A stretch of 64,000 nucleotides of DNA from Vulcanimicrobiota bacterium (lineage in GTDB: Bacteria > Vulcanimicrobiota > Xenobia > Xenobiales > JADMJV01). The notes under the pieces were generated by a model. It was given only the letters and a program-made list of their open reading frames with translations. It made no database searches and was not told the origin of the DNA. This document shows positions 5,956-62,430 of the stretch, in pieces (position 1 is the stretch's first letter; each line of letters starts with the position of its first letter). The stretch is taken from positions 823,659-887,658 of the forward strand of contig JBFWNU010000002.1 of NCBI GenBank assembly GCA_050250895.1, read 5' to 3'. Position numbers and translations under genes: made by a program.

Positions 5956-7275
5956 TTACAGATTTGCCTCTGTCTTGTTAACATCGGACTCGAAGACCCT
6001 CCAGGTGCGCCAGAGGGTGGCCAGGCCCAGCGTCCAGATTCCGCAGAGAAAGCCTAGCAATACAGGCTGCGGGCCGTGCAGCCAGCGGGCTACCACGGTC
6101 ACTGTGGCCAGACAGCCAAGAGCCAGATAGGTATTGTGGGCGTTAACGGCCTTGCGATGAGCCCCGTCGAGGATACTTCGAAAGCCGAAGAACCAGGCGT
6201 AAGGCACCACCGTCGGCAGCATCCAGTAGAGGGCATTCGAGGAGGCGGCCAGTTTATGTCCCAGGTAGAGGGTCAGGGCAGGCTTGAGCCCCAGGAAGCC
6301 CACCACCACTCCCAGGCTCATGACGGCGGTGATCCAGCGGAGCAACACCAGGAAGTGCCGGCGCAGATCTTCTCCCTGGCCGGTCCGCAACATGCGGGTC
6401 GACTGGGGAACCAGGATCATGGCCAGCGGATTGACCAGCGCTCCGGCCACCGTCAGCATGGTGCCTCCCAGGGCGATCACCCCGGCCACCTGCAGATCGC
6501 CGAAGTGGCTGGTGAGAGTCACCGGAACGCCGAGCAAGACCGACAGCGCCAGGGCGCCAGGAATGCGCGGGGCGGCGTACTCCCACAAGCGCCTGAGGTG
6601 CACTTCAAAGGCGCCCGGCCCGAGAGGTTCGTCTTCCAGTCTGGGAATGACCTGGCCAAAGAGGGCGATCGAGCTGATCAATAGATAGCCGATGCCGGTC
6701 CAGGCGAAGACCTGGGCCGTGGACTGACCCACCAGGGTGAGCGCCAGCAGGGGAGTCAAACCACTGCCGATGGTGATCAGGCTCGAAGTGGCGATCTCCA
6801 TGCGTCCCAGCAGGAAGTTGGCCGCCAGGGTGGTGGTGCACACGCCCACGAACATCAGGGAAATGGGGGGCACCAGAGCCGCGTGGGCGACATCGCCAAA
6901 GAACAAGAAGGAGACCTGAGCGCTGCACAGGTTGGCCGGTACTACTACCAGCAAAGCGGCCGCTCCCAGCAACACCGCGGCCGCTTTGAAGTAGCCCCGC
7001 TCGCTGTCCTGAGAGTCGGTGCCCCGGGCCGCAACGTGGTGGGTGATGGCCACTCCCAGGCACTGCATCAGGATGGGATAACCGTAAGAGAGCGTGCGCC
7101 GGCCGACGGCATATTCGGCGAACCCCTGCTCGCCCAGGAACTGGTTCGAAAGCCGGTAGGCCAACAGGTTACAGACCAGGATGAACAAGGTCGAGCCGTA
7201 GGTCCAGAGATAGTGCTCGGTCCTGGGCTTGGCGTACTTGTCGTGGCTCGCGCCGTTCACGCTCGTGCATTCCAT
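5956..7275 (-). CDS. Polysaccharide flippase-like (Wzx/MOP superfamily) membrane protein
   Basis: About 12 hydrophobic segments, LGEQGFAEYAV N-terminal motif, MOP-like layout. Confidence 0.6.
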   Translation of the reverse strand: MECTSVNGASHDKYAKPRTEHYLWTYGSTLFILVCNLLAYRLSNQFLGEQGFAEYAVGRRTLSYGYPILMQCLGVAITHHVAARGTDSQDSERGYFKAAAVLLGAAALLVVVPANLCSAQVSFLFFGDVAHAALVPPISLMFVGVCTTTLAANFLLGRMEIATSSLITIGSGLTPLLALTLVGQSTAQVFAWTGIGYLLISSIALFGQVIPRLEDEPLGPGAFEVHLRRLWEYAAPRIPGALALSVLLGVPVTLTSHFGDLQVAGVIALGGTMLTVAGALVNPLAMILVPQSTRMLRTGQGEDLRRHFLVLLRWITAVMSLGVVVGFLGLKPALTLYLGHKLAASSNALYWMLPTVVPYAWFFGFRSILDGAHRKAVNAHNTYLALGCLATVTVVARWLHGPQPVLLGFLCGIWTLGLATLWRTWRVFESDVNKTEANL

Positions 7276-7333: not shown

Positions 7334-7846
7334 ATGAGAATCCACGCCTTTACCCCGAACCATCAGGCGGCCAGAAACCAGACCGCTACTCCCGAGCCCG
7401 ACAAGTGGCAGGTCTCGACCGGCTTCATTCCCCGGCTGGGTCACCAGTACCAGGGAGACTATGCCGACCTGAGCGCGATCGCTGACAGAGTCCAGGCGGG
7501 TGAGTTATCGGTTCCCAAAGAGGGACTCAAGGTCTGTCAGAAGGGTTGGCAGCCGGAGCGGGCCGTCGAGTTGCGCCAGCAGGGTCTGGCGGCCGCTGGC
7601 GTCAGCGCGGCTCTGCTGGTAGCCGGCCTGGCCACCGTGGCTCTCAGTTCCAGCCAGGGCGGACAGTTGGGCGGCTTGATGATTTCGCTGATGGGTGGGG
7701 GAGTGGCCGGCGCCGTGAGTGCCGGCAGTCTGATTGCGGCCGACCACTTCGAGCAGGCTCCTCAGATTCGCGACCAGGGCTATGTGGTTCGCACCAATGC
7801 GGGTCTCGTCTATCAGCCTTTCGAGGGGCCTGAGCAAAAGCTCTAG
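7334..7846 (+). CDS. Hypothetical protein with two Gly/Ala-rich hydrophobic helices
   Basis: 170-aa ORF; GLAAAGVSAALLVAGLATVAL and GGLMISLMGGGVAGAV. Confidence 0.6.
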   Translation: MRIHAFTPNHQAARNQTATPEPDKWQVSTGFIPRLGHQYQGDYADLSAIADRVQAGELSVPKEGLKVCQKGWQPERAVELRQQGLAAAGVSAALLVAGLATVALSSSQGGQLGGLMISLMGGGVAGAVSAGSLIAADHFEQAPQIRDQGYVVRTNAGLVYQPFEGPEQKL

Positions 7847-7852
7847 GCCTAG

Positions 7853-9445
7853 CTAGCTCTGCCAGCCGAGACGCCCCTCCTTGGGACCGCTTTCGCGGGG
7901 CACGAAGAGATACGCGATGCCACCCTGCAAGTCGGGACCGCGCACGGCATAGCGCTTGCCCTGACTGGCCAGAGCCGGCTGGGTGAGCGGCCACAATTCT
8001 TGGAATTGACCCACGAAACGAAAGCCGGCGGGCGGTAGCTTTGGTCGCTCGAGCCAGCAAGGCGGCCCCCCCAATCGGGTGCGTGAGGTGAGTTCGTCGA
8101 GGATCTCCATGACCTTCTCGCCGGGTTTGCCCCAGCCCGGGTTTTCTTCGATGGCCTCCCACTCGGTCTCGGACTCGAAAGCCCCCCGCACGGCTCGAGG
8201 AACAGGGTCGGTGTAAGCTTGCCAGCCGGTGATGAACACTTCGGGAAACAGCTTGACAGCGCTGGGTGGCATCGCCTGGCCGAGGCCATGCTGCTCTGGA
8301 TCGAGCAAGATCACTCTATTGGCTCCGCCGTCATATTCTTGCGGGGTACAGCGGGGGTTGCTGCAGACGAACACATAAAGGGTTCGTCCGGCCAGGCCAA
8401 GATCGAGTCGCCCCTGGCGATGGGCCAACTGAAACCAGAAGCTCAAGGCCTTCTGGCACTGGGCGCACTTGGGCCAGTGCTCGGAGGGGAATCGGTCGGG
8501 AAAGCCCCCGAATTTCTCACGGCCGTCGCCCCGGGGGTCGGCTTCGAGGACCGGTAAGAAAAAGGCTGGTGCCTTATCGGTCGCTGGCGTGATGGGGGGC
8601 TTCCAGGACACGACCTCCCAGAGATTGGGCCGGCGCTGGCGACTGTTGCAGGGTGGGAACTCTTTGTTGAGATAGTCTAGCATCGCTTCGGCGCCGGGTG
8701 AGACCCGCACGCCCCGGGCGAGCAAGGCCTCGCGCGAGGCCCGGGCCACATGGTTGTGGGAGCTAAAGTGAAGTGCCTGATTCGTCAGGGCCAGTGCAAA
8801 CTTCTCGAAACCTGCCGAAAAGCAAAGATAGGCGGCCTTGCTCAGGGTCGATGAAGACTGTTCGTATTCATAGATGGCGGCCTGAATCCCGGCCGAACGC
8901 AGCTGCGGCCAGGCCGAAGCCGGCGCCAGGCAACCGGCCTCGAGAGTCAGCCTCTGTCCTTCGAGCGAGACCACCAATTCCAGCCGGCAAGCCGAGCCAT
9001 GAGCGTCGACACTGGCTCGAAACAGAAAACGATTGGGTCCTGTCAGGCGAACCAATTCGGCCTTCTCGTCGCCCAGCGCGGCCTTGACCACGGCGGTGTT
9101 GACGATGCCCTCCTCGAAGACGGGGCGAAACTCGGGGCTAAGGTCGGGTCGGGTGCCCAGCTTCTCGGCCACGACGCTGCGAAAGACATCCAGTTCGAAG
9201 TCCTGCGACTCGCTCCAGGGAACCAGAGCGAAAGCCTCGAGCGAACGGGTGGTGCGGCCCAGGTCGGCCTCGAGTTCGGCCACTAGCTCCCAGCCGTCGC
9301 CCCAGGCGATTTCGTGGGCTTTGCGAAATTCGTGCGGGCGCGCCATCTCGGCCAGGACCGCGCGCAGGCGCTCCAGGGTCTTTTCGGGGTTCGACCGGGC
9401 CGTCTCTTTGGCCGATTCTATCAGCGCTTCCAGGGTTGCCTCCAC
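7853..9445 (-). CDS. Hypothetical protein with a C-terminal DUF1963/YwqG-like domain
   Basis: EKFGGFPD..WPKCAQCQKALSFWFQL, LYVFVC, TRLGGPPCW, GGIAYLF; GAAGGAG RBS before GTG 9445. Confidence 0.6.
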   Translation of the reverse strand: MEATLEALIESAKETARSNPEKTLERLRAVLAEMARPHEFRKAHEIAWGDGWELVAELEADLGRTTRSLEAFALVPWSESQDFELDVFRSVVAEKLGTRPDLSPEFRPVFEEGIVNTAVVKAALGDEKAELVRLTGPNRFLFRASVDAHGSACRLELVVSLEGQRLTLEAGCLAPASAWPQLRSAGIQAAIYEYEQSSSTLSKAAYLCFSAGFEKFALALTNQALHFSSHNHVARASREALLARGVRVSPGAEAMLDYLNKEFPPCNSRQRRPNLWEVVSWKPPITPATDKAPAFFLPVLEADPRGDGREKFGGFPDRFPSEHWPKCAQCQKALSFWFQLAHRQGRLDLGLAGRTLYVFVCSNPRCTPQEYDGGANRVILLDPEQHGLGQAMPPSAVKLFPEVFITGWQAYTDPVPRAVRGAFESETEWEAIEENPGWGKPGEKVMEILDELTSRTRLGGPPCWLERPKLPPAGFRFVGQFQELWPLTQPALASQGKRYAVRGPDLQGGIAYLFVPRESGPKEGRLGWQS

Positions 9446-50434: not shown

Positions 50435-51361
50435 TCAGCGAAACGAGCTGAAAAAGATCCAGATCTCGTCCGCCGCATTGAGGTCGCGACTGACTTCTCC
50501 TACCATCGAGACCGGCAGATACTGCGGGCCCGAGGGCCATGTGTGGCCGCCGTTCTTGATCTCGTAGAGCACGACCGGAGCTCCTTTGGATGAAGGCCAA
50601 CTGGTGCGGGTGACCGAGGTGTTATCGCCGGGAGCGTCGATGGCCCGCACCGAATCGGGTGACTGCGAACAGCCGTTGCGACGGCGGAAGATGGCCAGGG
50701 TTTTCTCGGTCGAGAGCACGGCGTCGCGATCTCGGCCCAAGATGCGAATCATGCCGCCCTGATAGGGCACCAGCGGGTCCCCCGTGCCGTTGAAGACGGC
50801 CAGCCCCACCGGGGGGCCGTCGGTGCAGTCGTCTTCGAGATAGCCAGGCAAAGGCATGGTGACCGGTGCCACCGCGCGAAAGACGCCCGGCAGCTTGCCC
50901 ACCAGGAAGTAGCAGGCCTGTCCACCGCGCGAGATGCCAGTGGCAAAGATCCGACGCGAGTCGATAGGAGCCACACTCTGGACTTGTTCGAGCACCGTCT
51001 TGAAATAGGCCAGGTCATCGTTGGGATTCTCGATGCTGGCCGAGATTTCGCCCTCGCCGAAGTTCCAGAGTTTCTCGCCCCCGGCCTCGGGATAGACCAC
51101 GTAGAAACCGTGCTGGTCAGCCAGCTGGTTGAAGCGATGCCCGGTCATGCGGACCATCTGGCGAGCCGTGCCCGAGCCTCCATGGATGACAAAAACTAGA
51201 GGTCGTGCCCCTTCCAGGGCGGCGGTCTGTTTCGGGGTGTAGAGCAGGTAGCGCCGGGTCACCCCAGCCTGGTCGAAGGTCTTTTCGTGCAGCCCCGGCC
51301 GGGCCGCCGCCAGCCCGCTGGCCAGTAGCAGCCAGGCCAGCAACCATCTACCAGATGGCAT
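50435..51361 (-). CDS. Secreted alpha/beta hydrolase (LpqC / PHB depolymerase-like esterase)
   Basis: PLVFVIHGG, GISRGG nucleophile elbow, GTGDPLVP, GGHTWP. Confidence 0.85.
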   Translation of the reverse strand: MPSGRWLLAWLLLASGLAAARPGLHEKTFDQAGVTRRYLLYTPKQTAALEGARPLVFVIHGGSGTARQMVRMTGHRFNQLADQHGFYVVYPEAGGEKLWNFGEGEISASIENPNDDLAYFKTVLEQVQSVAPIDSRRIFATGISRGGQACYFLVGKLPGVFRAVAPVTMPLPGYLEDDCTDGPPVGLAVFNGTGDPLVPYQGGMIRILGRDRDAVLSTEKTLAIFRRRNGCSQSPDSVRAIDAPGDNTSVTRTSWPSSKGAPVVLYEIKNGGHTWPSGPQYLPVSMVGEVSRDLNAADEIWIFFSSFR

Positions 51362-53357
51362 TGCGGCGCTCGCCCTCGCGTAGCATCGGGCTGCCGGGCG
51401 GGATCTTGAAGGCCTGCTCGAATTCGGGCAGGTTCGACAGCGGTCCGTTGACCCGATAGCGAGGGTGGGGATGGGGGTCGGTGTTGACCTGCAGGCGCTC
51501 GTATTCGGGGCGCATGTTCATAGCCCAGACGCGGGCGTAGGCCAGGAAGAATCGCTGCTCGGGATTGAACTTGCCGCTGCGATCGGGAGGGTTTTTCTGC
51601 CAGGCCTTCTGCAGGGCGCGATAGGCCAGCTTGAGTCCGCCCAGGTCGGCGATGCTCTCGCCCACCACCAGTTTGCCGTTGATGTGCAGGTTATCGGCCA
51701 CGGTGTATTCGTCGAACTGCTTGACGATGCGTTCGGCCAGACCTTCGAAGCGCAACTTGTCGTCGTCGGTCCACCAGTTTTCCAGGTTGCCTTTGGCGTC
51801 GTACTTGGAGCCCTGGTCGTCAAAACCGTGAGTTAACTCATGGCCGATGACCATGCCCAGGGCCCCGTAGTTAAGGGCGTCGTCGTAGTCGTTCGAGAAG
51901 AAGGGAGGCTGGAGAATGCCGGCCGGGAACACGATCTCGTTAGAGGAGGGGTCGTAGTAGGCGTTGACCGTCTGGGGGGTCATATACCACTCGTTGGGGT
52001 CGACCGGTTTGCCGATCTTGGCCAGGTCGCGAGCCACCTCGAAGGCCTGGGCGGCCAGAGCGTTCTCGGCATAGGCCCCGGGCTTGATGGTCAGGCTGGA
52101 ATAGTCGCGCCACTGATCGGGGTAGCCGATCTTCTGGCGGATGGCCTGGAGCTTCTCGACCGCCTTGAGGCGGGTAGCCGGGCTCATCCACTCGAGGGTT
52201 TCGAGGTCTTCGCGTAGGGCCGCCCGCAGGTTGGCGATCAGCTCTTCGACGCGGACTTTGGCTTCGGGGGGGAACTTGCGGGCCACGAACTTTTTGCCCA
52301 AAGCCATGCCGATGGCGCCATCGGTGGCTGCCACCACCCGCTTCCAGCGCGGTTGCATCTTCTCGGCGCCGGTCAGGGCCTTGCCGTAGAAGTTGAAGGT
52401 CGCTGTCTCGAACGGCTCGGCCAGGCTGGGCGCTTGACTGTGGACCAGGTGCCAGCGCAGGTAGGTCTTATGGGTCTCGATGGGAGTCTGGGTCAGGGCT
52501 GCGTCGAGCGCCTTGAAGAAGTCGGGGGTGGCCACGTTGAGCCACTCGATTTCGACGCCCATCCGTTGAAAATAGGTGGCCCAGTCGAAATGGGGGCTGA
52601 CTGCCTTCAGTTCGGCCAGGGTCTTGGGGTTGTAGGTCGCTTCGGGGTCGCGCAGGGCCACCCGTGTCATCGAGTCTTTGGCCAGTTTGCTTTCGAAATC
52701 ATAGACATAAGAGCTGTCGTGGGCCGAGCCCTGGGCCGAAGGACCCATCAGATTGAACATAGTGACCAGGTGGCCCTGATAACCCGAGCGGATCTTCCGG
52801 GACGCCTCATCGTCGCGAAAGTAGTAATCGCGATCAGGCAGTCCCAGCCCGCCTTGCGAAAGTTGGCCGATGACTTTCGAGCTGTCTTTCGAGTCTTGCA
52901 CGGCGCCGAAGTTGAAATAAACCCATACGCCCATCGAGTGGAGGCGGGCGACCTCGGCTTGCAGACTCGCCTGGTCGGTGATGGCCTCGATGCGAGCCAA
53001 CTCGTCGGCCAGCGGCTTGAGGCCGGCGGCGTTGATGGCTTTGGTGTCCATCCCCGAGGCGTAGAAATCGGCCAGTTTCTGCTCTTCTGAGCCCGGGGCG
53101 GGATTTTGCCTTCCGAGTTCTTCGAGAATCTCGCGACAGACCGCTTGATTGTTCTCGGCCAGCACGTTGAAAGTGCCCCAGCGGGGGCGGTCCGAGGGAA
53201 TCGGATTGCGCTTCATCCAGCCGCCGTTGGCGTACAGATAGAAATTCTCGGCCGGCGACACGGTAGTGTCCATGTCGGCCGGGTCGAGCCCGGTGGGTGG
53301 GGCTGCCCAGGCGGGCAGACAGCAAAGAATGGCCAGGGCCAGGAACAGTCGTTTCAT
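51348..53357 (-). CDS. Secreted M13-family (neprilysin/PepO-like) zinc metallopeptidase
   Basis: VNAYY, PAGILQPPFF, HELTHGFDD, GESIADLGG. Confidence 0.95.
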   Translation of the reverse strand: MKRLFLALAILCCLPAWAAPPTGLDPADMDTTVSPAENFYLYANGGWMKRNPIPSDRPRWGTFNVLAENNQAVCREILEELGRQNPAPGSEEQKLADFYASGMDTKAINAAGLKPLADELARIEAITDQASLQAEVARLHSMGVWVYFNFGAVQDSKDSSKVIGQLSQGGLGLPDRDYYFRDDEASRKIRSGYQGHLVTMFNLMGPSAQGSAHDSSYVYDFESKLAKDSMTRVALRDPEATYNPKTLAELKAVSPHFDWATYFQRMGVEIEWLNVATPDFFKALDAALTQTPIETHKTYLRWHLVHSQAPSLAEPFETATFNFYGKALTGAEKMQPRWKRVVAATDGAIGMALGKKFVARKFPPEAKVRVEELIANLRAALREDLETLEWMSPATRLKAVEKLQAIRQKIGYPDQWRDYSSLTIKPGAYAENALAAQAFEVARDLAKIGKPVDPNEWYMTPQTVNAYYDPSSNEIVFPAGILQPPFFSNDYDDALNYGALGMVIGHELTHGFDDQGSKYDAKGNLENWWTDDDKLRFEGLAERIVKQFDEYTVADNLHINGKLVVGESIADLGGLKLAYRALQKAWQKNPPDRSGKFNPEQRFFLAYARVWAMNMRPEYERLQVNTDPHPHPRYRVNGPLSNLPEFEQAFKIPPGSPMLREGERRNAIW

Positions 53358-53404: not shown

Positions 53405-53602
53405 CTAGTCAGACCATCCCAGAGGCTGGCCTCGATGGCCCGGCCGTTCGACAGCCACGGCCGTGGGGGGCTGTGGCGCCGGGGCCCGTCGCGACAACAA
53501 GACGGTCAGGGGCGGGGCGGCGGGTGGACCGCTGACCAGCGGTGGCGAGGCCAGGGCTAGCAGGGTCAACAAGGTAAGAAGCCAGGCGGCGCGCTGTTTC
53601 AT
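53405..53602 (-). CDS. Small secreted or membrane-bound Pro-rich peptide
   Basis: ATGA overlap with the upstream gene; signal-like MKQRAAWLLTLLTLLALA. Confidence 0.45.
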   Translation of the reverse strand: MKQRAAWLLTLLTLLALASPPLVSGPPAAPPLTVLLSRRAPAPQPPTAVAVERPGHRGQPLGWSD

Positions 53603-54903
53603 GGAGTGAGGTCTCCGGCCAGCACGCCATGCGGGGTGCCGATGAGGAACTGGCCACTGTCGTTGAGGGCCAGCACTTCGTCGGGTCGCAGCACGCGATT
53701 ACCCGCTTTGAGCACGAAAGCGCTGCCGTCGTTGACGTTACCGGTGACCACCCCCGACGAGGTGCCGATTAGGAAGGTTCCGTCTTCGCGCAGCACGGCG
53801 CTGATGTTCTGGATGTGGCCGTCGCCGGGCATGTCGTCATAGCCGTCTTCGTCCACGCCATTGTTGGCATAAAGCTTGTGACCGTCGAGCTTGACCAGGG
53901 TCACCTCGTCACGCGAGGCGTCACCGCGCACCACCCCTGAGAGAGTGCCGGCCACGAACTGGCCGTTCTCGTTGAGGTCCATTCCTTCGTCGGCTCGCAC
54001 CGTCTTGCCGTCAAGCTTCACCAGGCTGGTCTGGCCACCCACCTCGCCGCGAATCAGGCCGGGGCCGGTGCCGGCGATGAACTGGCCTTGATTGTTGAGC
54101 TGTACTTCATCGTCAGCCCAGACCTTGCGGCCATCAAGTTGAACCAGCCTGGTCCCACCGTCGATATGGCCCTCGACCAGGCCGCGGGTGGTGCCAGCCA
54201 CGAACTGGCCGCGGTCGTTCAAGTCCAGACCATCGTCGACCTTGAGCGTCTTGCCGTCGAGGGTCACCAGGTGGGCCTCGCCCTGGGCCACCTGGCCGGT
54301 GACCAGACCCTGCAGCGCGCCCGCCAGGAAATGGCCCGAATCGTTGACGTCAAAGCCCTCGTCGGCGAAGGCCGTCCGCCCGTCGAGCTTGAGAAAGCGG
54401 GCCTGGCCGGTAGTGAGGTCGCCCACCACGATGCCGCGGTTGGTGCCCACGATGAACTGGCCCTTCTCGTTGATGGCCGAGCCGCCGTCCGAGCGAAGGT
54501 CCTTGCCCTCGACCCGCAACAGATGCTGGCTGCCGGCCTGGTTGAGGTTGCCGACCACGATGCCCTGAATGGTGCCGACCACGAACTGGCCTTGGGAGTT
54601 GACGGCCCCTCCTTCATTGGCGAACAGCTTGTGCCCGTCAAGCTCGAGAAAGTGCCCGGTGGCCGTGCCTTCGGGAGCTTCCGGCAGGGCGATCTGGATC
54701 GAGGGCTGGTTGCTGGCGGTGCACCCGGCCACTGAAGTCACCGCTACCAGCCCCAGCAACGCCGCTCCCCACAACGACTTGGGGGAATGGGCGGGGGTCG
54801 GGTCCTGGGTGAAGTTGTCCAGCGAGGGAGCTTCTTCGGTTGGGACGGTGGCGGAGCGAACTCCGGGAGGGGCGGCATGGCGGACGGAACTCAACTTCTG
54901 CAT
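53599..54903 (-). CDS. Eight-repeat beta-propeller protein, possible lipoprotein
   Basis: Eight repeats of about 41 aa, consensus LDGKxxxADxGxxLNxxGQFxxGTxxGxxxG; internal hydrophobic helix ending VAGC. Confidence 0.75.
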   Translation of the reverse strand: MQKLSSVRHAAPPGVRSATVPTEEAPSLDNFTQDPTPAHSPKSLWGAALLGLVAVTSVAGCTASNQPSIQIALPEAPEGTATGHFLELDGHKLFANEGGAVNSQGQFVVGTIQGIVVGNLNQAGSQHLLRVEGKDLRSDGGSAINEKGQFIVGTNRGIVVGDLTTGQARFLKLDGRTAFADEGFDVNDSGHFLAGALQGLVTGQVAQGEAHLVTLDGKTLKVDDGLDLNDRGQFVAGTTRGLVEGHIDGGTRLVQLDGRKVWADDEVQLNNQGQFIAGTGPGLIRGEVGGQTSLVKLDGKTVRADEGMDLNENGQFVAGTLSGVVRGDASRDEVTLVKLDGHKLYANNGVDEDGYDDMPGDGHIQNISAVLREDGTFLIGTSSGVVTGNVNDGSAFVLKAGNRVLRPDEVLALNDSGQFLIGTPHGVLAGDLTP

Positions 54904-55056
54904 GTCCCCAGTGTAACGTCTTGATGTTTCTAAACTGTTTCCAAAATGTATCCGGGTTTCTATTCCTTCACGTGCAACAACTTCCGTCTCTAAGTGGACA
55001 CTTTTCGCTGTCGATTTCTACCGTCTACCGACTTCCGTCTGATCCTACCGTCTGAT

Positions 55057-55971
55057 CTACCACGCGTGCCCGGCCATCAGCATCGAGGCCAGGGCTTCGC
55101 TGATCGGTTGTCCGGTTCGGTTTTCATACCAGCCGTAGGCCGGGGAGGGGTTGACCTCAAAGCAGCACACCTCGCCCTCGGGAGTGAAGCGAAGGTCGAG
55201 CCCGGCCAACGGCAACTCGAGGCGTCGGGCCAGGTTCTGGCAGCGTTCAGCCAGCTCGGCGGGAAGGTCCCAGGCCACGATCTCGGACTCTTTGTCATAG
55301 CGATAATCACTCTTCTGCGACTCGATCCGCGAGGCGAAGACACCGTGGTTGCCGACCACATGGACCCGCACGTCAAAGCCCGGCACATAGCTCTGCAGCT
55401 GCAAAGGGCAGTATTGCAGTTGCTCGAGTCGATCCAGATCTTGTTCTTGCAGCTTCTGCACGATCGAGCGCTGGTAGCTGATCGATTTGAAGATGACCTC
55501 GCCCTCTTGCTCTTCGTAAAAGAAGCGAGCCTGCTGGTCGCGGTTGGTCACCACCGTGGCGGGCACAGCCAGGCCCGCTTCGGCGATGAGGCGAATCTGA
55601 TAAGGCTTGCTGGCGTTGGAACTGGCCGCCCGCGGCCGGTTGACCACCAGACCCGGAAAGTTGTTGAGCCAGCCCACCAGGGCCGACTGGCACTGATGGT
55701 TGACGTGCACGACCTCCTCGTCGCTGTACTCTTCATAGACTTGAAAGTTCGAGAAGCCGACGCGATGATAGATAGCCCGAATGCGGCTGCACGCGATCCG
55801 CTCGCCACCCAGCAGAAAGGCATCCTGTTCAGGCGTCGAGCCGAAAGCGAGACGAATCTCGCCGGGGATGTCGTGCACCGAAAAGAACATCGATTCTGCC
55901 CCGGCCGCCGACAAGGCCTCGGCGATGCCGACACCCATCGGGTCTTCGGGCGAAGAGATGACCAGGATCAC
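55057..55971 (-). CDS. ATP-grasp ligase (RimK / MvdC-MvdD-like), catalytically intact
   Basis: MILVISSPED start (GTGA coupling), NASKPYQ, GLAVPATVVTN, VIFKSIS, LQSYVPGFDVRVHVVG, DYRY, GLDLR, FEVNPSP. Confidence 0.9.
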   Translation of the reverse strand: MILVISSPEDPMGVGIAEALSAAGAESMFFSVHDIPGEIRLAFGSTPEQDAFLLGGERIACSRIRAIYHRVGFSNFQVYEEYSDEEVVHVNHQCQSALVGWLNNFPGLVVNRPRAASSNASKPYQIRLIAEAGLAVPATVVTNRDQQARFFYEEQEGEVIFKSISYQRSIVQKLQEQDLDRLEQLQYCPLQLQSYVPGFDVRVHVVGNHGVFASRIESQKSDYRYDKESEIVAWDLPAELAERCQNLARRLELPLAGLDLRFTPEGEVCCFEVNPSPAYGWYENRTGQPISEALASMLMAGHAW

Positions 55972-56837
55972 GGCTTGCCCTCCAACAACTCGGCCACGGC
56001 CGAGCGCACCGTCTCGTGAGATAGGGCCGCCAGGCTGGGAAAGCTCTGCAGCGAGCCCACCTGCCACTGCCCGTCGTGACCCCGTCGCAGGTTGAATTCG
56101 CCCAGATTCAGCTCGAGACTGCGGGCTAGGTCAAGACAGGCCTCTTGCAGTTGCGCGGGTGGCTCGGCTTCGCCTACGAACAAGCCTTCTTCACCCACCA
56201 CACACAGGGCGCCGGCCCCCGGCCACGGCTCGGCCTCGAAATGAATCGGGGCCAGCGGCAACCGCTCGAGCAGCTCGAGTTGGTCCTCTTCCATGGCCGT
56301 GAAGTGGCTGCCGGGGTCGCCCACCTGGCGATAGATGATGCGCCCCTGGTGGTGCCGATGAAAGTCGCGAGCCGCCTCAGGATCCGAGGTCACCAGCATC
56401 TCGGGCACCGGCAACCCGGCCGCGCTGACCGTGCGCATGGTCGACCAGCGCGTTCCCCAGGTATCAGGCCGGCGAAAAAAGTTGGCCATCAGGGCCGTGT
56501 CCGACAGTTGGTCGAACATGGCGATGAGGGTGGCCCACTCTTCGAGCTGAATGTAACCGCGATCTTGCTCTGAAAAGCCCTCCAGGCTTTCGGGGGGCAC
56601 AAAGAAATGGTCCATGCAAACCGCCGACACTGTCGAGAAAGGCAGCACGCCCCCATCGGGCAGATAGACCAGGCTCGTGCCCGGGTCGGGCCCAAGATAG
56701 AGCGAGCATTCCGAGAAAAACTGCTCTTGAGTAAAGAACGCCACCGGTCGCCGTTGGCGATTGAGCAGCGTCTCGTAAAGAATGGCCAGACCCGGATGTT
56801 GAAGGGTCCCGTAGAACAGGACGCACGATTCTTGCAT
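55968..56837 (-). CDS. ATP-grasp-fold protein with a degenerate active site (probable pseudo-ligase)
   Basis: AGLPVPEMLVTSDPEAARDF and LERLPLAPIHFE align with the neighbour. Key positions differ: K to R (IIYR), no DVRV, DLR to NLR, EVNP to SLQS. Confidence 0.75.
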   Translation of the reverse strand: MQESCVLFYGTLQHPGLAILYETLLNRQRRPVAFFTQEQFFSECSLYLGPDPGTSLVYLPDGGVLPFSTVSAVCMDHFFVPPESLEGFSEQDRGYIQLEEWATLIAMFDQLSDTALMANFFRRPDTWGTRWSTMRTVSAAGLPVPEMLVTSDPEAARDFHRHHQGRIIYRQVGDPGSHFTAMEEDQLELLERLPLAPIHFEAEPWPGAGALCVVGEEGLFVGEAEPPAQLQEACLDLARSLELNLGEFNLRRGHDGQWQVGSLQSFPSLAALSHETVRSAVAELLEGKP

Positions 56838-56844
56838 TCAGAGG

Positions 56845-57780
56845 CTAGGCGAAGAAGCGGTTCGAGAGCGTCGTGACCGTCGGCTGCACGCGATTGAACA
56901 CTTCCAGGTCCTTTTCGCCGAGCTTCTCGTTTTCGATTTTGAAGGACTCTTTGGCCTCGAGGGATTTCTCGATATTGAGTTTCTCGGGATTCTTGTCGCC
57001 GAGCTTTTCATTCTCGGCTTTGAAGCTCTGCTTCTCGGCCTGCTTGTCGAGCAACTTATCGTTCTGGATAGCCTTCTCGTTGTATGACTTGTCACCGAGC
57101 TTCTCGTTTTCGGCCTTGAAGCTCTGCTTTTCGGCCTGCTTGTCGAGCAACTTATCGTTTTGGATAGCCTTTTCGTTGTATGACTTGTCACCGAGCTTTT
57201 CGTTTTCGGCCTTGAAGGTCTGCTTCTCGGCCTGCTTCTCGAGCAACTTATCGTTTTGGATAGCCTTTTCGTTGTATGACTTGTCACCGAGCTTTTCGTT
57301 TTCGGCCTTGAAGGTCTGCTTCTCGGCCTGTTTGTCACCCAGCTTCTCGTTGGTGACGGCCTTTTCATTGTAGGACTTGTCACCGAGTTTCTCGTTCTCG
57401 GCTTTGAAGGTCTGCTTTTCGATGCTCTGCTTTTCGATGGGCCCTTTTTCGAAGGACTGCTTATCGGCTTGCTTCTCGCCGAGCTTTTCGTTCTCGGCTT
57501 TGAACGAGAGCTTCTCGATATTCTTCTCTTGTCCCAATTTCTCGGGAGCGAACTTCTCGTGGGTGCCCTTCTCGGGTTGGCCCTTCTCGTAACCGAGCTT
57601 TTCGCTGGCGAATTTCTCAGGCTGCTTCTCGCTGCCGTGCTTGCAGAACGACTGCTGGAAGCCCGGCCCCTCGGTCGGCTTTCCGGCGGGTGCGGGGGCC
57701 GGTCCGCCGAGCGAGCGGATTGGGCCCTGGTGGGTGGTTAGCGCGGGACGAAACTGTGACGAGATGAACGGTTCTTTCAA
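56845..57780 (-). CDS. Lys/Glu/Asp-rich repeat protein; candidate multi-core precursor for the adjacent ATP-grasp ligases
   Basis: GGAGGAG RBS before TTG 57780 (MKEPFISSQF..., 311 aa); about 45 (D/E)K dipeptides; 7 nt upstream of the ATP-grasp gene. Confidence 0.8.
   Translation of the reverse strand: MKEPFISSQFRPALTTHQGPIRSLGGPAPAPAGKPTEGPGFQQSFCKHGSEKQPEKFASEKLGYEKGQPEKGTHEKFAPEKLGQEKNIEKLSFKAENEKLGEKQADKQSFEKGPIEKQSIEKQTFKAENEKLGDKSYNEKAVTNEKLGDKQAEKQTFKAENEKLGDKSYNEKAIQNDKLLEKQAEKQTFKAENEKLGDKSYNEKAIQNDKLLDKQAEKQSFKAENEKLGDKSYNEKAIQNDKLLDKQAEKQSFKAENEKLGDKNPEKLNIEKSLEAKESFKIENEKLGEKDLEVFNRVQPTVTTLSNRFFA
56993..57420 (-). repeat. 96-bp (32-aa) tandem repeat, about 4.4 copies
   Basis: Consensus KQ(T/S)FKAENEKLGDKSYNEKAIQNDKLL(D/E)KQAE; DNA copies differ mostly at synonymous sites. 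Confidence 0.9.
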
Positions 57781-57804
57781 AGTCGAAACTCCTCCGAATA
57801 CCAA

Positions 57805-57813
57805 ATTGTATCA
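57805..57813 (-). promoter_or_regulatory. Extended -10 element upstream of the precursor gene
   Basis: Minus strand TG-A-TACAAT just upstream of the GGAGGAG RBS. Confidence 0.45.
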
Positions 57814-57849
57814 CGACCCCACCCGGTTTGGTCTAGAGGTTGGCCAAAA

Positions 57850-58227
57850 TCAGTGGCGCACCCCGCTAAGGTAGGTCTCGGCCAGCACTCGCTGGTCCTG
57901 GCCGCGCACCTGCCACGAAACCACGACCTGGGCGCTTTTCAACAGGCGGGGATCTCGTCCGGCCAGCTCAGCGATCTCTTGCCGGATGGCAAAACGCTGC
58001 CCTTCCACCGTGATGTCCTCGGTGTAGATGCCGACCTCGAGTTGCTCGAAGCTGGTGTGCTGCAGTCTGGCCAACCGGTCCTGGGCCAGGTTATTGGCCA
58101 CCAGGCGCGCTTCGGTCCGAGCAATCGCAAGCAGCGAGGTGGGGAAGAGGTTGAGCACGAGAATGCCGATCACAAAGGCCACGGCCGCGGCGAAGACCAC
58201 TTCTGCCAGGCTCAATCCCCGTCGCAT
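57850..58227 (-). CDS. Prepilin-like protein (PilV / pseudopilin type)
   Basis: MRRG-LSLAEVVFA class III signal; C-terminal VVVSW. Confidence 0.75.
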   Translation of the reverse strand: MRRGLSLAEVVFAAAVAFVIGILVLNLFPTSLLAIARTEARLVANNLAQDRLARLQHTSFEQLEVGIYTEDITVEGQRFAIRQEIAELAGRDPRLLKSAQVVVSWQVRGQDQRVLAETYLSGVRH

Positions 58228-58277
58228 CCCGCATGCTTCCGCGAGGACCGCGCTGCAACCTGCGAGAAAGCCTGGTA

Positions 58278-58919
58278 ATGGACCCCGGGAAAAGGCGCTT
58301 CAAGACCGGCGTGACGCTGATCGAGCTCATTATCTACGCCGGCTTGAGCTTGCTGTTGCTGGGTCTGCTGTTTTATCTCTTGTGGCCCAGCGCCCGGGCC
58401 TCGGGGGTCGCCACCGCCAAGGTGCGCCTTCACCAGATGGCCACCAACGTCTTGACCAAGCTGGGCCGCGACCTGGCTACCAGCAATGCCTCGGCCGTTT
58501 CTTTGCTCGATTCGGCCGCGGCCCCCCAGCCCAATGGCCTGGCTCTGGTGCAAGCTCGGGGCCTGACGGCCAGTGGCCAGACCAGCTGGCAGACCGAAGC
58601 CATCTGCTATCTGTTCTTGCCGGAGCAGGGCCGCGTGGTGCGCCAACTTTGCCCCCCCGAGCCGCCCTCGGTCGTTTTTCTGGCCTCGCGGCCGGCGCTG
58701 CTCTCGGCCTCTGACCTGCTGGCGGTGGCCCAAAACTCCAACCAGACCCGCCGCACGTTGGCCCAGCAGGTTACCCGCTTCGAGGTCTTTCACGAGGGCG
58801 ACACCCGAGCCAGGGTGGTCTCGCCCCTGCGGGTGCGCATTCGCCTCGAAGCCGATGTGCCCGGCCGCACCGCCCCGGAGGTTTTCGAACTGGAGCGAAC
58901 CTTTGCGCTGCGCGATTAA
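58278..58919 (+). CDS. Prepilin-like protein (PilW / GspJ type)
   Basis: KTG-VTLIELIIY N-methylation motif. Confidence 0.75.
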   Translation: MDPGKRRFKTGVTLIELIIYAGLSLLLLGLLFYLLWPSARASGVATAKVRLHQMATNVLTKLGRDLATSNASAVSLLDSAAAPQPNGLALVQARGLTASGQTSWQTEAICYLFLPEQGRVVRQLCPPEPPSVVFLASRPALLSASDLLAVAQNSNQTRRTLAQQVTRFEVFHEGDTRARVVSPLRVRIRLEADVPGRTAPEVFELERTFALRD

Positions 58920-60468
58920 GATTGTCTTGCTGATGGGACTGCTCTGGGCGGGGGCCACCGCCGAGGTTCGCGACCTGATGATCGTGGCTGTCGACACCCA
59001 GGGCAAGAACTTGCGCGCCGAGCTCTATCTCAAGGCCGAGGGCTTCGAGTTGCTCGGTCCCAGCGGGCGGGCCTATGCGGTCGAGATGGACCCGTTCACT
59101 CTCAAGAATGGACAGGTTCGCCTGCGGGTGGGCCTGATCCATCCAGACTACATCGGTCTCTATGAAGAGATCGACTTTCGTCGCGGGGTGCCCGTCAAGC
59201 TCAAGATGGTGCCGCGCATTCGCCGTTTCGAGTTGCAGACCGATCCCCCCGATGCCCGGGTTCGCTCCCAACAGGGCTTTCTCGAGCGGCAGCCGGATGG
59301 CTCGCTGGAGCTCGACCCGGCCGCTTACCTTCCCCTGGCCGGGCGGGCCGGTGGCGAGCCTGTCTATCAACGCGCCCCCGCCGAGTTGACCCTCGAGGCC
59401 GACGGCTACGAACCGACCAGCCTGATCATCGAGCCCGAGCAGTGGGCCACCGGTCAGCTGGGCTCGGTGGCCCTACCCGCCGCCCGCGGTCTGGGGCCCT
59501 TCCTGACCCGCCTGCGTCACTCTCCTGGCCCGCTGCTGCTGGTGTTGACCTTGCTTGGGCTGGGCGCTCTCAAAGCTCGTCAGCTGGCCGCCAGGGCGCG
59601 TCTGGCCGAGCAACTCGAGAGCCTGCGCGCCGATGGTAGCGATCCCCTGGCCGGAGCCGAACTCGGTGGCTATCGGCTGGCCGAGCAGTTGGGCCAGGGG
59701 GGCGCGGCTGCCGTCTATCTAGGCTATCCGGCCGCCAGCCTTGACCTGAGCAAGCCCGTGGCCGTCAAGGTCGTGCACCGCCAGTTGGCCCAGGATCCCG
59801 ATTTTCTCCAGCGCTTCTATCGCGAGGTCGAGGTGAGCGGTTCGCTGGTCCACGCCAACATCGTCGAACTCAAAGACTATGGCAACCAGGACGGGCAACT
59901 CTATCTGGTGTTGGAATACCTCAAAGGTACTTCCCTGCGGGATAAGGTTCGGGCCGGCCTGCCCCTCGCCCAGGTGATGGACTACCTTCGTCCGGTGGCC
60001 AAAGCCCTGATTTACGCCCACCAGCAAGGCGTGACCCATCGCGACCTCAAGCCCGAGAACATCATGGTGACCGAGCACGGTCTCAAAGTGATGGATTTCG
60101 GCTTTGCCAAGAAGCACAACGCCTCGACCATTACGGCCACCGGATTCATCTTCGGCACCCCGGCCTATCTGCCACCCGAGCAGGCCCGAGGCGAGGTCTG
60201 TGCGGCCACCGACCAGTATGCCTTCGGAGTGCTGGCCTTCGAGCTGTTCACCGGTCGCTTGCCCTTTGAAGCCGAAGAACCGTTGGCTCTGGTGATGCAG
60301 CACATGAGCGACCCGCCGCCCAGCCCGCGCGACTTTCGCCCCGACCTCTCGATCGAAGTCGAGGCCGTCGTGCTCAAACTGCTGGCCAAAGACCCCGAAG
60401 ACCGTTATCCCTCGATGAGCCAGGCCTGGCAGGCGCTCGAAGAGGCTAGTGGGCTTTCCACAGCCTGA
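58903..60468 (+). CDS. Ser/Thr protein kinase with an N-terminal extracytoplasmic PEGA-like region
   Basis: Signal-like N-terminus, LQTDPPDARV, TM, LGQGGAAAVY, VAVK, HRDLKPEN, DFG, GTPAYLPPEQ; start uncertain. Confidence 0.88.
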   Translation: MRCAIKIVLLMGLLWAGATAEVRDLMIVAVDTQGKNLRAELYLKAEGFELLGPSGRAYAVEMDPFTLKNGQVRLRVGLIHPDYIGLYEEIDFRRGVPVKLKMVPRIRRFELQTDPPDARVRSQQGFLERQPDGSLELDPAAYLPLAGRAGGEPVYQRAPAELTLEADGYEPTSLIIEPEQWATGQLGSVALPAARGLGPFLTRLRHSPGPLLLVLTLLGLGALKARQLAARARLAEQLESLRADGSDPLAGAELGGYRLAEQLGQGGAAAVYLGYPAASLDLSKPVAVKVVHRQLAQDPDFLQRFYREVEVSGSLVHANIVELKDYGNQDGQLYLVLEYLKGTSLRDKVRAGLPLAQVMDYLRPVAKALIYAHQQGVTHRDLKPENIMVTEHGLKVMDFGFAKKHNASTITATGFIFGTPAYLPPEQARGEVCAATDQYAFGVLAFELFTGRLPFEAEEPLALVMQHMSDPPPSPRDFRPDLSIEVEAVVLKLLAKDPEDRYPSMSQAWQALEEASGLSTA

Positions 60469-62065
60469 GCCGGATACGGTCGGCCTGGCTAAGATACTCG
60501 TTGAGCCCAAAGTGAAAGATCGAGGTCTCGGCTGTCACCTGGGTCTGGGTGCCGCCGGTGGGACTAAAACCCTGACCGACCAGGGCATTGACCACCATGT
60601 CGAGAGGGTTGACGCCTTCTTCTGGACCGTCCATGTTCTGTTCGTCGAACTCCATTCCGGGCGGTCCGCTGATATTGGCGTCGAGCAACAGCCGCTTGAT
60701 TTGATGCCGGGGAGTGTTGTCGCGGTCGTTGCTTTGGAGCCGAAAGATGAGGGTGTGCAATTGGCTGATCTGTTCGGGTGTGAAATCGACGGTGAAGTTG
60801 ACCACCTGATCTCCCACCGGAAAAAGGTCATTGTCACGCACATTGTTGCGGAAACTGAAGCTGACGTGGGAGCGGTTGACGATAAAGTCGGCCGCCTCAG
60901 GCACCGACACCAACCCGACGTTGTCGAGGGTCACGTGGCTGCCGGGGTTGATCGCCTCTTCGGGATGATTGGCCAGAAAGGCGCCCACCAGGGTGATGTC
61001 CGAGGCGACCAGATCCCCTTCGGTGTAGATGATGCCTTGAAAATAGGAGCCGTCGGGCGAGCCCGAGATGGTGACCGTATCCTGGGCGATCAAAGCCACT
61101 TCATTGGCGGCCGCCAGGGCCACCCCCGAGTTGAGGGTGACTTTGCCTCGGGCCACAATCGCCCCACGCCCCACCACCGGCCCGTCGACGATCAGGTCGC
61201 CGTTGACCAGCAACACCCCCTCGTCGAGGCGCAGTTGCGACAACCTGGTCACATGCTCAGACGACTCGCGCACTCCGGCCACCAGCGTCTCGCCCCCGAG
61301 CAGCGGCCGCCCGCCTTTTTCGAAGTAGCGTTCGACCTCCAGAGGCGGCAGATCGACCTGGCCGGCAAAAGGACGCAACTCCCCGTCGACGGTGACTCCG
61401 TCGCTCACCATGATCGACCCCTTCGCCTCGAGATTGCCGGACACTCTGGTGTCGGTCCCGTCAAGTTCGACGGCTAACCCGGCGGCGTTGGAGCGCAAGT
61501 CGGCCCGGCTCAGGTCCTCGAGCTCAAAGCCGTCGACCGCCTCTTCGACACTGTCGAGGGCGCCCACCACCAGCCTGCCACTGGAGTGGACCGGCCCCGA
61601 CGAGGCCAGGGCATAAGGAAAGCCCGGCACGTGATAGATGGCTTCGACGGTCCGCTTGACCCCGCCCGACTCGCCCACGGCCACCACCTGAATGGCATCG
61701 ACCGGCAGCGAGCGCCCGTTCCAGCCCTCGACAGCCGCGGCCGCACCACGATTGTCGTGAGACTCGGGAATACCCCAGTCGGCGGCCTGCTGCTGGCTAA
61801 AGGCCACCCGCCCGACCGAGTCGGTCAGCTTCACTTCGACCGACTGGCTGGGGTCGTCGGTTTTGCCGAAGCCTGGCTCGGTCAGCAGCCGCTCCACCGC
61901 CTGGGCGATGGCCGCATCGGCGGCGTTGGTGGCCTGGTCGCCGTGGCCGGCCCTCAGGCCGAAGTTGAGGTGGAAGATGCCGGTGCTGGCCGCCGTGAGC
62001 CCCAGCAGCAAGATCAAGGTGCCCACCAGCAACGTGGTGGCCAGCGTATTGCCCCGAGTCTTCAC
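60446..62065 (-). CDS. PilX-like protein with a beta-helix-like region
   Basis: MKTRG-NTLATTLLVGTLILLLG, ATNAADAAIAQA; GVLLVNGDLIV and FQGIIYTEGD repeats. Confidence 0.65.
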   Translation of the reverse strand: MKTRGNTLATTLLVGTLILLLGLTAASTGIFHLNFGLRAGHGDQATNAADAAIAQAVERLLTEPGFGKTDDPSQSVEVKLTDSVGRVAFSQQQAADWGIPESHDNRGAAAAVEGWNGRSLPVDAIQVVAVGESGGVKRTVEAIYHVPGFPYALASSGPVHSSGRLVVGALDSVEEAVDGFELEDLSRADLRSNAAGLAVELDGTDTRVSGNLEAKGSIMVSDGVTVDGELRPFAGQVDLPPLEVERYFEKGGRPLLGGETLVAGVRESSEHVTRLSQLRLDEGVLLVNGDLIVDGPVVGRGAIVARGKVTLNSGVALAAANEVALIAQDTVTISGSPDGSYFQGIIYTEGDLVASDITLVGAFLANHPEEAINPGSHVTLDNVGLVSVPEAADFIVNRSHVSFSFRNNVRDNDLFPVGDQVVNFTVDFTPEQISQLHTLIFRLQSNDRDNTPRHQIKRLLLDANISGPPGMEFDEQNMDGPEEGVNPLDMVVNALVGQGFSPTGGTQTQVTAETSIFHFGLNEYLSQADRIRLRLWKAH

Positions 62066-62109
62066 CTGGACTCTTTCGACCCGCGCTCGCCGGTCGCCTG
62101 GGCCGAGCC

Positions 62110-62430
62110 TCACGGGGCGGGAGGCGGCCGGCGGCTGAACTGAGAGTTCTGCCAGATGATCCGAGCCCGCTCGCCCACCATCTGGCAGGTAACCGGTCGA
62201 ACCGGGACGGAAAACTGTCGTGCAAACACAGAAGCTACCTCGTCGGCAAGCCCCTCCCAGTTCGAAAGGCCGGCTAGCATCACCATGAGAGCGTCGGCTT
62301 CAGGGCTGTACTCATCGGGTGGTCCGCCAATCGACATCGGATCGAGAGAAGCTAGCATCTTCTGCAGCTCGAGTCGAACTCGTAGATACTCCCTTTTCTT
62401 GCCATGGCTACTAGGGTCAGCCTTCAGCAC
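62110..62430 (-). CDS. Small hypothetical protein (DUF1871/YugE-like)
   Basis: LDPMSIGGPPDEYSPEA..VFARQF; start uncertain. Confidence 0.4.
   Translation of the reverse strand: MLKADPSSHGKKREYLRVRLELQKMLASLDPMSIGGPPDEYSPEADALMVMLAGLSNWEGLADEVASVFARQFSVPVRPVTCQMVGERARIIWQNSQFSRRPPPAP

Follow-up and report, generated by a model that had tools for sequence, protein, structure and literature searches.

A (D/E)K-repeat protein encoded with an ATP-grasp/pseudo-ATP-grasp pair in a Vulcanimicrobiota bacterium: a candidate graspetide-type system for serial macrolactam formation

Ligases of the ATP-grasp superfamily that act as graspetide synthetases install macrocycles on ribosomally made precursors, and we describe here a candidate system of this type in a 64,000-nucleotide stretch of DNA (the window) from a Vulcanimicrobiota bacterium (assembly GCA_050250895.1, contig JBFWNU010000002.1, positions 823,659 to 887,658, forward strand). 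It consists of a 311-aa protein with (D/E)K repeats (gene 1), a pseudo-ATP-grasp (gene 2) and an ATP-grasp ligase (gene 3). Among the closest described systems, MyxF works on (KxxE)n sequences in N-to-C order, closing contiguous lactams (Lys1-Glu4, Lys5-Glu8) on up to four motifs, and one ligase paralogue of the Myx system works only alongside partner ligases (PMC12848669). CorB needs a partner protein and closes five lactams, each of the KxxxD type, on CorA (~22 kDa) (PMC13097080). The same report lists 43 RODEO graspetide groups. Long repetitive precursors are frequent in groups 34 and 35, partners in group 34 match no Pfam family, and in group 32 various proteases are encoded nearby (PMC13097080). 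In the survey by Makarova 2022, an ATP-grasp devoid of catalytic activity is typical of the branch 8 loci; no precursor was found for this branch and peptidases were proposed to supply the substrates (PMC8939145). Precursor candidates in that survey were limited to ≤150 aa, the leader signature was given as Phhx(1,2)h, and one precursor cluster had several core-peptide repeats (PMC8939145). Moreover, a graspetide leader was functional after relocation to the C-terminus, two leaders improved modification of a multivalent core, and ThfB, a graspetide synthetase, has been adapted by engineering to the cross-linking of protein dimers (PMC13003496).

We consider it reasonably probable that gene 3, aided by its dead paralogue gene 2 and with an FIxxx(h)RP motif as the recruiting signal, forms serial Lys-Glu/Asp macrolactams from the (D/E)K array of gene 1. 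The evidence that carries this proposal comprises the repeat pattern itself, the similarity of gene 3 to graspetide macrocyclases, the conserved adjacency of the three genes and the presence of the same motif next to K/D/E-rich tracts in distant relatives.

Gene organisation and the repeat protein

The three genes are located on the minus strand (gene 1, 56845-57780; gene 2, 55968-56837; gene 3, 55057-55971). An earlier note on this DNA had described them as tightly linked, and this was confirmed from the sequence: 7 nt separate gene 1 from the ATG of gene 2, and the TGA stop of gene 2 and the GTG start of gene 3 share GTGA. Gene 1 has a TTG start, which lines up with the point where its homologues begin (M(A/S)DLFI), and a TAG stop, and a putative ribosome-binding site, GGAGG, lies 10 nt 5' of the TTG (57791-57795, minus strand). 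The GC content at third codon positions is similar for genes 1, 2 and 3 (0.78, 0.76 and 0.78, respectively), which supports the reading frame of gene 1. A scan of positions 54700-58400 gave one promoter-like site (0.6 expected) and six terminator-like sites (4.6 expected), none of them usefully placed.

The gene 1 protein, a putative substrate or precursor, can be divided into three parts, all encoded on the minus strand. The first is a Pro/Gly-rich, non-repetitive leader-like segment (residues 1-49; 57634-57780), delimited from the sequence and the N-termini of homologues and agreeing with the approximately 49 residues noted before. It is followed by the (D/E)K-repeat region (residues 50-290; 56911-57633) with 45 (D/E)K units, and by a C-terminal tail (residues 291-311; 56848-56910), present as earlier noted (VFNRVQPTVTTLSNRFFA), which ends in ...LSNRFFA.

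The 45 (D/E)K dipeptides (33 EK and 12 DK) all fall within residues 51-290 and their number equals the previous manual count. Shuffling residues 49-294 (10,000 shuffles) gave 12.1 +/- 2.7 (D/E)K with a maximum of 24, and the pattern thus far exceeds an effect of composition. An acidic residue precedes 45 of the 56 Lys in the repeat region, and the units are spaced by 4 (19 times), 5 (14 times), 6 (four times), 9 (six times) and 14 (once) residues. The motif (S/T)FK(A/I)ENEKLG(D/E)K was found in the seven copies reported before, at residues 92, 124, 156, 188, 220, 252 and 279. At the DNA level, Tandem Repeats Finder identified a 96-nt tandem repeat, corresponding to a 32-aa unit, with 4.5 copies and 90% matches (56992-57421). 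In the protein there are three full copies (residues 150-245), preceded by a variant copy and followed by a partial one, which makes the four occurrences claimed earlier slightly generous. The accompanying statement that the copies differ mostly by synonymous changes holds, since pairwise comparison of the three full copies gave one, five and four synonymous and one, two and one nonsynonymous codon differences.

The ESM Atlas model of gene 1 is of low confidence (pLDDT 0.42, pTM 0.29), which fits a disordered unmodified chain. Several leads from gene 1 were discarded. ESM Atlas features (≤0.80, EspF-repeat clusters) were rejected as composition effects, as were the matches in structure to repeat proteins of other kinds and a Pfam Ribosomal_L27 match (2.4e-4, with no significant stretch). 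A structural protein of the single-alpha-helix (ER/K) type was likewise rejected, given that Gly and Pro dominate unit positions 1-2 and that the pattern travels together with the ligase pair. A homologue search with the whole of gene 1 yielded one match at E ≤ 1e-5 among 7,999 scored candidates; low-complexity words swamp this list and the size of the family cannot be read from it.

The ligase and its degenerate paralogue

Gene 3 (55057-55971, minus strand, GTG start) encodes a 304-aa protein that on the basis of profiles and conserved residues is an active-type, graspetide-synthetase-like ATP-grasp ligase. Its NCBIfam matches were TIGR04187, "ATP-grasp ribosomal peptide maturase", over the full length (8e-44), MvdC (1.5e-33) and MvdD (7.6e-31), compared with 4.1e-11 for the RimK family model and 3.1e-5 for Pfam RimK, in keeping with the earlier view of gene 3 as a graspetide-type ligase. 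All six of its sequence relatives in the PDB are graspetide macrocyclases (PsnB, the best match, with 1.9e-28, as well as AMdnB, MdnB/C, CdnC and PruB). Catalytic columns were compared in an alignment of 15 gene 3 and 14 gene 2 orthologues, and K122, K162, R202, R224, D226, D259, E272 and N274 are kept in all 15 gene 3 orthologues. Of these, D259, E272 and N274 are the Mg-binding triad known from ATP-grasp enzymes.

Gene 2 (55968-56837, minus strand) encodes a 289-aa protein for which a Pfam scan gave no match and NCBIfam only weak matches to the N-terminal half. Its AF2 model (pLDDT 86.8) nevertheless has a graspetide-macrocyclase fold, with Foldseek TM scores over the whole length of 0.77-0.79 to PsnB and 0.78 to MdnC, versus 0.61 to RimK, at ~20% identity to the PsnB chains. 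In all 14 gene 2 orthologues K122 is replaced by R and a 17-residue loop (SDYRYDK) is deleted; D259, E272 and N274 are each kept in none of the 14, and K162 and R202 in six each. Gene 2 shares the fold but has neither the metal-binding triad nor the loop, and it is hence best regarded as a conserved pseudo-enzyme and not as a second ligase. The pair had previously been taken for tandem ATP-grasp ligases. For gene 3 that description stands, and gene 2 is, judging from these alignments, a degenerate paralogue of the ligase. Gene 3 is the sole member of the pair with the ATP-grasp catalytic residues, so that by this criterion only one of the two genes is predicted to be catalytic.

Conservation of the cassette and its protease-associated relatives

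Strong homologues of gene 3 (47-54% identity) were detected in 13 of the 41 relatives searched, one of the copies being broken. We compared synteny among 15 related loci from Eremiobacterota (Vulcanimicrobiota)/Xenobia, for which the counts are non-independent. A gene 2 homologue is located immediately upstream of the ligase in 14/15 loci, and a similar (D/E)K-repeat open reading frame (ORF), the presence of which beside ligase homologues the earlier note had named as a check, is present, upstream of the gene 2 homologue, in 13/15. The two loci without a repeat ORF are L024, where the contig ends inside gene 2, and L030, which has a ligase remnant and neither partner. In L030 (G005:C68, 4312-5278) the gene 3 homologue is frameshifted over three frames, and with no pseudo-ligase and no repeat ORF the locus is the remnant of a decayed cassette.

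The complete repeat ORFs encode 188-561 aa and have 27-102 (D/E)K (12 ORFs with a full N-terminus; three more are partial). Across the family the units comprise 459 five-mers, typically G/L/Q/F-P/G/A-x-E-K, and 208 four-mers. Specifically, in L016-L019 Asp or Glu precedes 78-102 of 79-109 Lys and Ser and Thr together number just 16-24; this scarcity leaves Lys as the only conserved nucleophile. Some genomes have two to three cassettes with differing unit sequences. One of the related proteins (L029, G018:C26, 2828-4066, plus strand) has ~190 non-repeat residues between an EK tract with TEKDPNEK units and a terminal APSGRMFA.

With respect to distribution, a gene 2 profile matched 16 of 401 sampled genomes of the phylum, representing five families, and none of the 297 from the largest family sampled; one more match, the 17th, is a cross-hit to the broken G005 ligase. 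Of 1.84 billion representative proteins only 30 matched this profile at E ≤ 1e-30, and the family is therefore small. The cassette records L034, L039 and P0026 are labelled Armatimonadetes, Burkholderiales or Nitrosotenuis. Their contigs group with the class or family of the window, and the labels look like binning or labelling errors.

Beyond the three genes we found no syntenic neighbour in the 15 related loci, and no protease, GG site or transporter is conserved among them; nor is a signal peptide or export gene, the N-termini having been inspected by eye. These data bear on whether the locus encodes a multi-core RiPP (a peptide made by the ribosome and modified after translation), i.e. a repeat protein that is cyclised, cut by a protease encoded elsewhere and exported as small cyclic peptides. 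Precursors with repeated cores exist (Makarova 2022, PMC8939145), and an M13 peptidase is encoded two genes downstream of the cassette in the window (51348-53357). That peptidase is without a counterpart in the related loci, however, and the repeat units abut, with no spacer and no conserved cleavage site, which together with the lack of a conserved protease, GG site and transporter makes the multi-core model unlikely in our view. The earlier note had left the choice between many cyclic cores and one stapled protein; since no protease or exporter accompanies the cassette, the intact stapled protein is the more likely of the two.

The ends of the repeat proteins are conserved. In ten aligned N-termini the sequence M(A/S)DLFIxxx(F/L)RP has invariant F5, I6 and R11 and a nearly invariant P12, and its counterpart in gene 1 is the candidate recognition motif PFISSQFRP (residues 4-12; 57745-57771, minus strand), an instance of FI-x3-(F/L/M/Y/Q)-R-(P/T). 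The corresponding regular expression, FI.{3}[LMFYQ]R[PT], which was built post hoc from these same sequences, gave one match in the expected ORF in 12/12 Xenobia-type loci and in 21/21 distant loci (see below). Stray matches amounted to one in 574,686 six-frame residues, and across the window (127,996 six-frame residues) gene 1 gives the single match. The motif is also present in two loci obtained after the expression had been fixed (L063 and L064), there as the N-terminal GLFITSELRPDL. Compared with the published leader signature Phhx(1,2)h, which lies within the first 30 residues, PFISSQF reads P-h-h-x3-h and is similar with no exact match.

At the other end, (P/L)(S/T)xR(F/M)(F/L) was found by eye in 15/15 listed C-termini, and the L063 and L064 proteins end in SSRFF. 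The residues beyond RFF differ among relatives (A, V, FKP, YGAE, YNV, VKQ and VK). Such a conserved tail, together with the weak RimK similarity of gene 3 (family model 4.1e-11; Pfam RimK 3.1e-5), could be accommodated by a RimK/TTLL-like activity that forms no rings and instead attaches free amino acids or amines, either at the Glu/Asp side chains or at the C-terminus. We regard this as very improbable. The similarity to macrocyclases is far stronger (8e-44), and gene 3 scores under the RimK family threshold (rimK_fam, 42.8 bits versus a cut-off of 143.4). Furthermore, the strict Lys-Glu/Asp pairing, with nearly every Lys beside an acid, would have no purpose in that model, and the C-terminus offers no fixed acceptor because the residues after RFF vary and are not Glu.

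A contig scan with the gene 3 alignment identified 31 loci, ten of the Xenobia type (eight on the same contigs as the related loci) and 21 distant ones with ligases of 36-46% identity over the best matching segment. The hosts of the distant loci belong to Chloroflexota, Acidobacteriota, Planctomycetota, Actinomycetota, Pseudomonadota (including Roseateles isolates), Syntrophobacter, Bryobacteraceae and archaea of Methanoregulaceae/Methanospirillum. In all 21 a K/D/E-rich tract of 51-137 residues lies near the C-terminus of the ORF upstream of the ligase pair, followed by a coiled-coil-like stretch (by eye) and then by (H/P)FIxxx(L/M/Y/Q)RP(D/E)L. A large non-repeat N-terminal part precedes the tract in 20/21 ORFs, and in the five that were scanned it corresponds to proteases of the S8 (two), M6, M64 and, weakly, S1-like families. 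The L050 ORF has no large N-terminal part and matched no Pfam family. By eye, the proteases of the distant loci have no Sec signal peptide. Relative to the Xenobia proteins the layout is a mirror image: K then D/E with a C-terminal motif in the distant loci, D/E then K with an N-terminal motif in Xenobia. The ratio of K to D+E is near 1:1 in most of the bacterial distant tracts (22:22, 12:12, 13:13, 20:20 and 28:28).

Between the protease and the distant ligase lies a gene of 234-296 aa that is a homologue of gene 2 (hhalign 97%, E 9.5e-11, 237 columns) without the central subdomain, and its product folds like AMdnB/MdnC (pLDDT 88.3, TMq 0.70-0.72). In a tree of the ligases the 17 Xenobia-type rows group as a single clade (support 99/96) with the protease-associated rows outside; the polarity of this tree is unsure, as it was rooted on a microviridin-like ligase of the same genome that has a long branch. 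Two further loci, L063 (2882-3763, minus strand) and L064 (2791-3762, minus strand), come from another class of the phylum with genomes of 2.5-2.7 Mb (G047 and G053). Their proteins have the N-terminal GLFITSELRPDL, tracts of both the EK and the KE type, a hydrophobic segment rich in Met (MELYMLMELMMMLMMMMM...) and the terminal SSRFF, and they look intermediate between the Xenobia and the distant architectures.

The distant loci also bear on whether gene 1 is the substrate at all. It might instead be a co-transcribed polyampholyte (a scaffold, chaperone or regulator), with the ligase pair acting on a target encoded elsewhere. Makarova 2022 found no precursor and suggested that substrates are encoded elsewhere, although the precursor search covered only proteins of ≤150 aa (PMC8939145). 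A structure prediction of gene 2 and gene 3 together with gene 1 residues 1-60 yielded no usable answer: the scores were 0.00 and 0.01, where the mark is 0.32, with no controls, and we take it neither for nor against binding. On the other hand, the K/D/E tract and FIxxx(h)RP accompany the ligase pair both on four unrelated protease families and as a stand-alone protein (21/21 and 12/12 loci), and the ligase is frameshifted where the repeat ORF and the partner are absent (L030). A non-substrate role of gene 1 is accordingly quite improbable.

Taken as a whole, the comparison allows a broader and more tentative proposal, to which we give rather less than even confidence. The cassette would be the stand-alone, hyper-expanded form of a widespread tail-stapling module, in which an ATP-grasp/pseudo-ATP-grasp pair reads FIxxx(h)RP and cross-links the adjoining K/D/E tract, in most lineages the tail of a protease (S8, M6, M64 or S1-like). 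In Xenobia the protease would have been dropped, the motif become N-terminal and KE flipped to EK, with 27-102 units. If this is true, the module would supply the "missing precursor" of branch 8, namely the protease tails. The named isolates Roseateles flavus 2.12 and R. subflavus APW6 account for two of the distant loci, and the protease-tail proposal can therefore be tested in culture.

Proposed product, neighbouring genes and comparison with known systems

From the sequence comparisons we infer a role for gene 1 as substrate, Lys-Glu/Asp amide links with a given ring connectivity, a role for gene 2, and a fate and function of the product. The gene 1 product would be a disordered, highly charged chain with the N-terminal recognition motif PFISSQFRP, ~240 residues of (D/E)K units and an RFF tail. 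Gene 3 would activate Glu/Asp side-chain carboxylates with ATP and join them to Lys epsilon-amines. Each Lys would most likely pair with the acid of the next unit (K-x2-3-E/D), giving up to ~44 contiguous small macrolactams. Supportive of serial lactams, the 4- and 5-residue periods correspond to the K-x2-E and K-x3-D/E ring sizes that have been demonstrated experimentally (PMC12848669, PMC13097080). Gene 2 would be an obligatory non-catalytic partner, which may dock the substrate or its motif, or stabilise or activate the ligase. The product probably remains full-length, charge-neutralised and protease-resistant, and is not cut into peptides. The idea of the earlier note that the repeat protein is a lactam-bearing substrate thus gains from comparison, i.e. 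from synteny and from the CorA and MyxF precedents (PMC13097080, PMC12848669), with the modification that only one ligase of the pair appears competent.

The same chemistry could operate between chains, so that repeat proteins polymerise to a covalent network or fibre that serves as structural or matrix material. In favour of this, there are very many units of uniform type and disorder is predicted for the chain; the coiled-coil-like stretch after the distant tracts could gather tails, and ThfB sets an engineered precedent for cross-linked protein dimers (PMC13003496). Set against this, the natural graspetides compared carry intramolecular rings (PMC12848669, PMC13097080), the 4-/5-residue spacing matches known intramolecular ring sizes, and no conserved signal peptide or export gene was seen among the N-termini inspected by eye. 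We consider intermolecular linking unlikely, and intramolecular serial lactams remain our preferred interpretation.

Several observations weigh against that interpretation. Identification of gene 1 as the substrate derives solely from conserved adjacency and pattern, and the ring connectivity (i+3/i+4, adjacent E-K or long-range) is not deducible from sequence. Gene 3 scores below the curated NCBIfam cut-offs (150.1 against 350 bits for TIGR04187, and 116.3 against 425 and 107.5 against 475), and is therefore a divergent member. In the leader motif the spacing is x3, against x1-2 in the published signature, and its first position is L, not P, in most relatives. A genome of the same genus (G001, 98% complete) is without the cassette, which is hence dispensable within the genus. 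The upstream side of the L038/L067 cassette lacks an ORF with the motif; there is just a divergent ORF with an EK tract, on the opposite strand where the contig ends, and the repeat ORF of L020 has an in-frame stop. Finally, the archaeal tracts have an excess of K over D+E (17:11 and 20:14).

In more detail, the EK-tract ORF of L067 (G098:C895, 3503-4651, plus strand; EKGREKGREKGEEKG...) lies on the opposite strand, shows no FI...RP motif in its visible part and runs off the contig. In L020 (G016:C32, 6154-7257, minus strand) the stop splits the ORF into pieces of 259 and 108 aa and may reflect a sequencing error, a pseudogene or read-through.

If the proposal is true, ATP-grasp macrocyclisation would extend from peptides with few rings to whole proteins with tens to ~100 contiguous lactams. 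The gene 1 product would then be a genetically encoded, charge-neutralised and probably protease-resistant polymer, a "chain of rings", and its dead-enzyme partner would join the newly recognised theme of partner-dependent graspetide synthetases.

The genes that flank the cassette in the window show little conservation. Directly downstream (53599-54903, minus strand) is a 434-aa ORF with an N-terminal hydrophobic segment and many ~33-aa repeats (LDG..., GQF(V/I)AGT..G.V.G); it has no Pfam or NCBIfam match and is not conserved beside the cassette in relatives. The M13 (neprilysin-type) peptidase mentioned above (51348-53357, minus strand; E 9.6e-126 and 5.4e-70) is non-syntenic elsewhere, and the same applies to a PHB-depolymerase-type esterase three genes downstream (50435-51361, minus strand). 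Upstream, the ORFs at 57850-58227 (minus strand), 58233-58919 (plus strand) and 60446-62113 (minus strand) have by eye prepilin-like N-termini (G-x4-E followed by a hydrophobic helix) and no Pfam match. Among the upstream flanking ORFs only 60446-62113 and the kinase-like 58573-60468 have a counterpart, in one related locus (L027). The same genome has a second, unrelated graspetide-type locus, L062 (G000:C13:27000-39000; 6061-7053, plus strand, and 7786-8430, minus strand), where a 330-aa ATP-grasp, 29% identical to gene 3, adjoins a 214-aa ORF with six microviridin-like cores (T-M/L-A/R-Y-P-S-D-S-D). The latter would be a multi-core precursor of the microviridin class.

In the open-access full-text literature we found no description of (D/E)K-repeat precursors, the FI...RP motif or protease-tail substrates. 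Of the characterised enzymes, PsnB (PDB 7DRM) is the closest solved relative of gene 3 and also the best structural match of gene 2. Plesiocin has Thr ester links and a TTxxxxEE core present four times on one precursor, and is made with a single ligase. As in microviridin leader recognition (MdnA/MdnC; PFFARFL), gene 1 has a short Pro-hydrophobic-hydrophobic...aromatic motif in its first 30 residues (P4-F5-I6-x3-F10), but the x3 spacing, the L or H start in most relatives and the C-terminal position in distant relatives differ, and gene 1 has no TxKYPSD core. The system also departs from classic RiPP logic, where a short precursor loses its leader and the core is exported: the precursor here is 311 aa (188-561 aa in relatives) and no protease, GG site or transporter is conserved.

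The earlier suggestion of an undescribed class was too strong, given that the ligase clade fits branch 8 of Makarova 2022 (PMC8939145) and that surveys mention uncharacterised groups with long repetitive precursors (PMC13097080). As in branch 8, an ATP-grasp is encoded together with an inactive ATP-grasp paralogue, and the distant gene 3 relatives adjoin peptidases of unrelated families (S8, M6, M64 and weakly S1-like); the link to this branch is made by these two described features and not by tree placement (PMC8939145). Unlike the precursor-less branch 8 (PMC8939145), the K/D/E tract and the motif sit on the peptidases themselves in the distant loci, and the clade of the window has no peptidase domain, a hugely expanded tract and no peptidase conserved alongside.

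The ring geometry proposed here resembles that made by MyxF on myxomiditide, in which the E of one K-x2-E ring directly precedes the next K, corresponding to the "EK" junction of gene 1 (PMC12848669). The need for partners is also shared, as one of the Myx paralogues is inactive alone. There are differences, too: MyxF-type rings number two naturally and four when engineered, on a microviridin core in a short peptide precursor, and all four Myx ligases keep their catalytic residues, MyxD2 being catalytic when its partners are present, unlike gene 2 (PMC12848669).

Corallotide (CorA/CorB, graspetide group 15) is similar in having a large precursor with repeated K-x3-D, Lys-Asp (i, i+4) macrolactams and a partner-dependent ligase of the TIGR04187 type, and its product is kept protein-sized, as we propose for gene 1 (PMC13097080). 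The system is confined to Corallococcus, and the cassette of the window is without the oxygenase and beta-lactamase genes. Moreover, CorB has as its partner a 2OG oxygenase, by which the product is hydroxylated as well, compared with a dead ATP-grasp here (PMC13097080). Corallotide has five spaced rings amid other sequence, against 45 abutting units in gene 1 and up to 102 in its relatives (PMC13097080). With five rings each in corallotide and myxomiditide, the number of rings predicted for gene 1 is far larger than that of the characterised graspetides compared.

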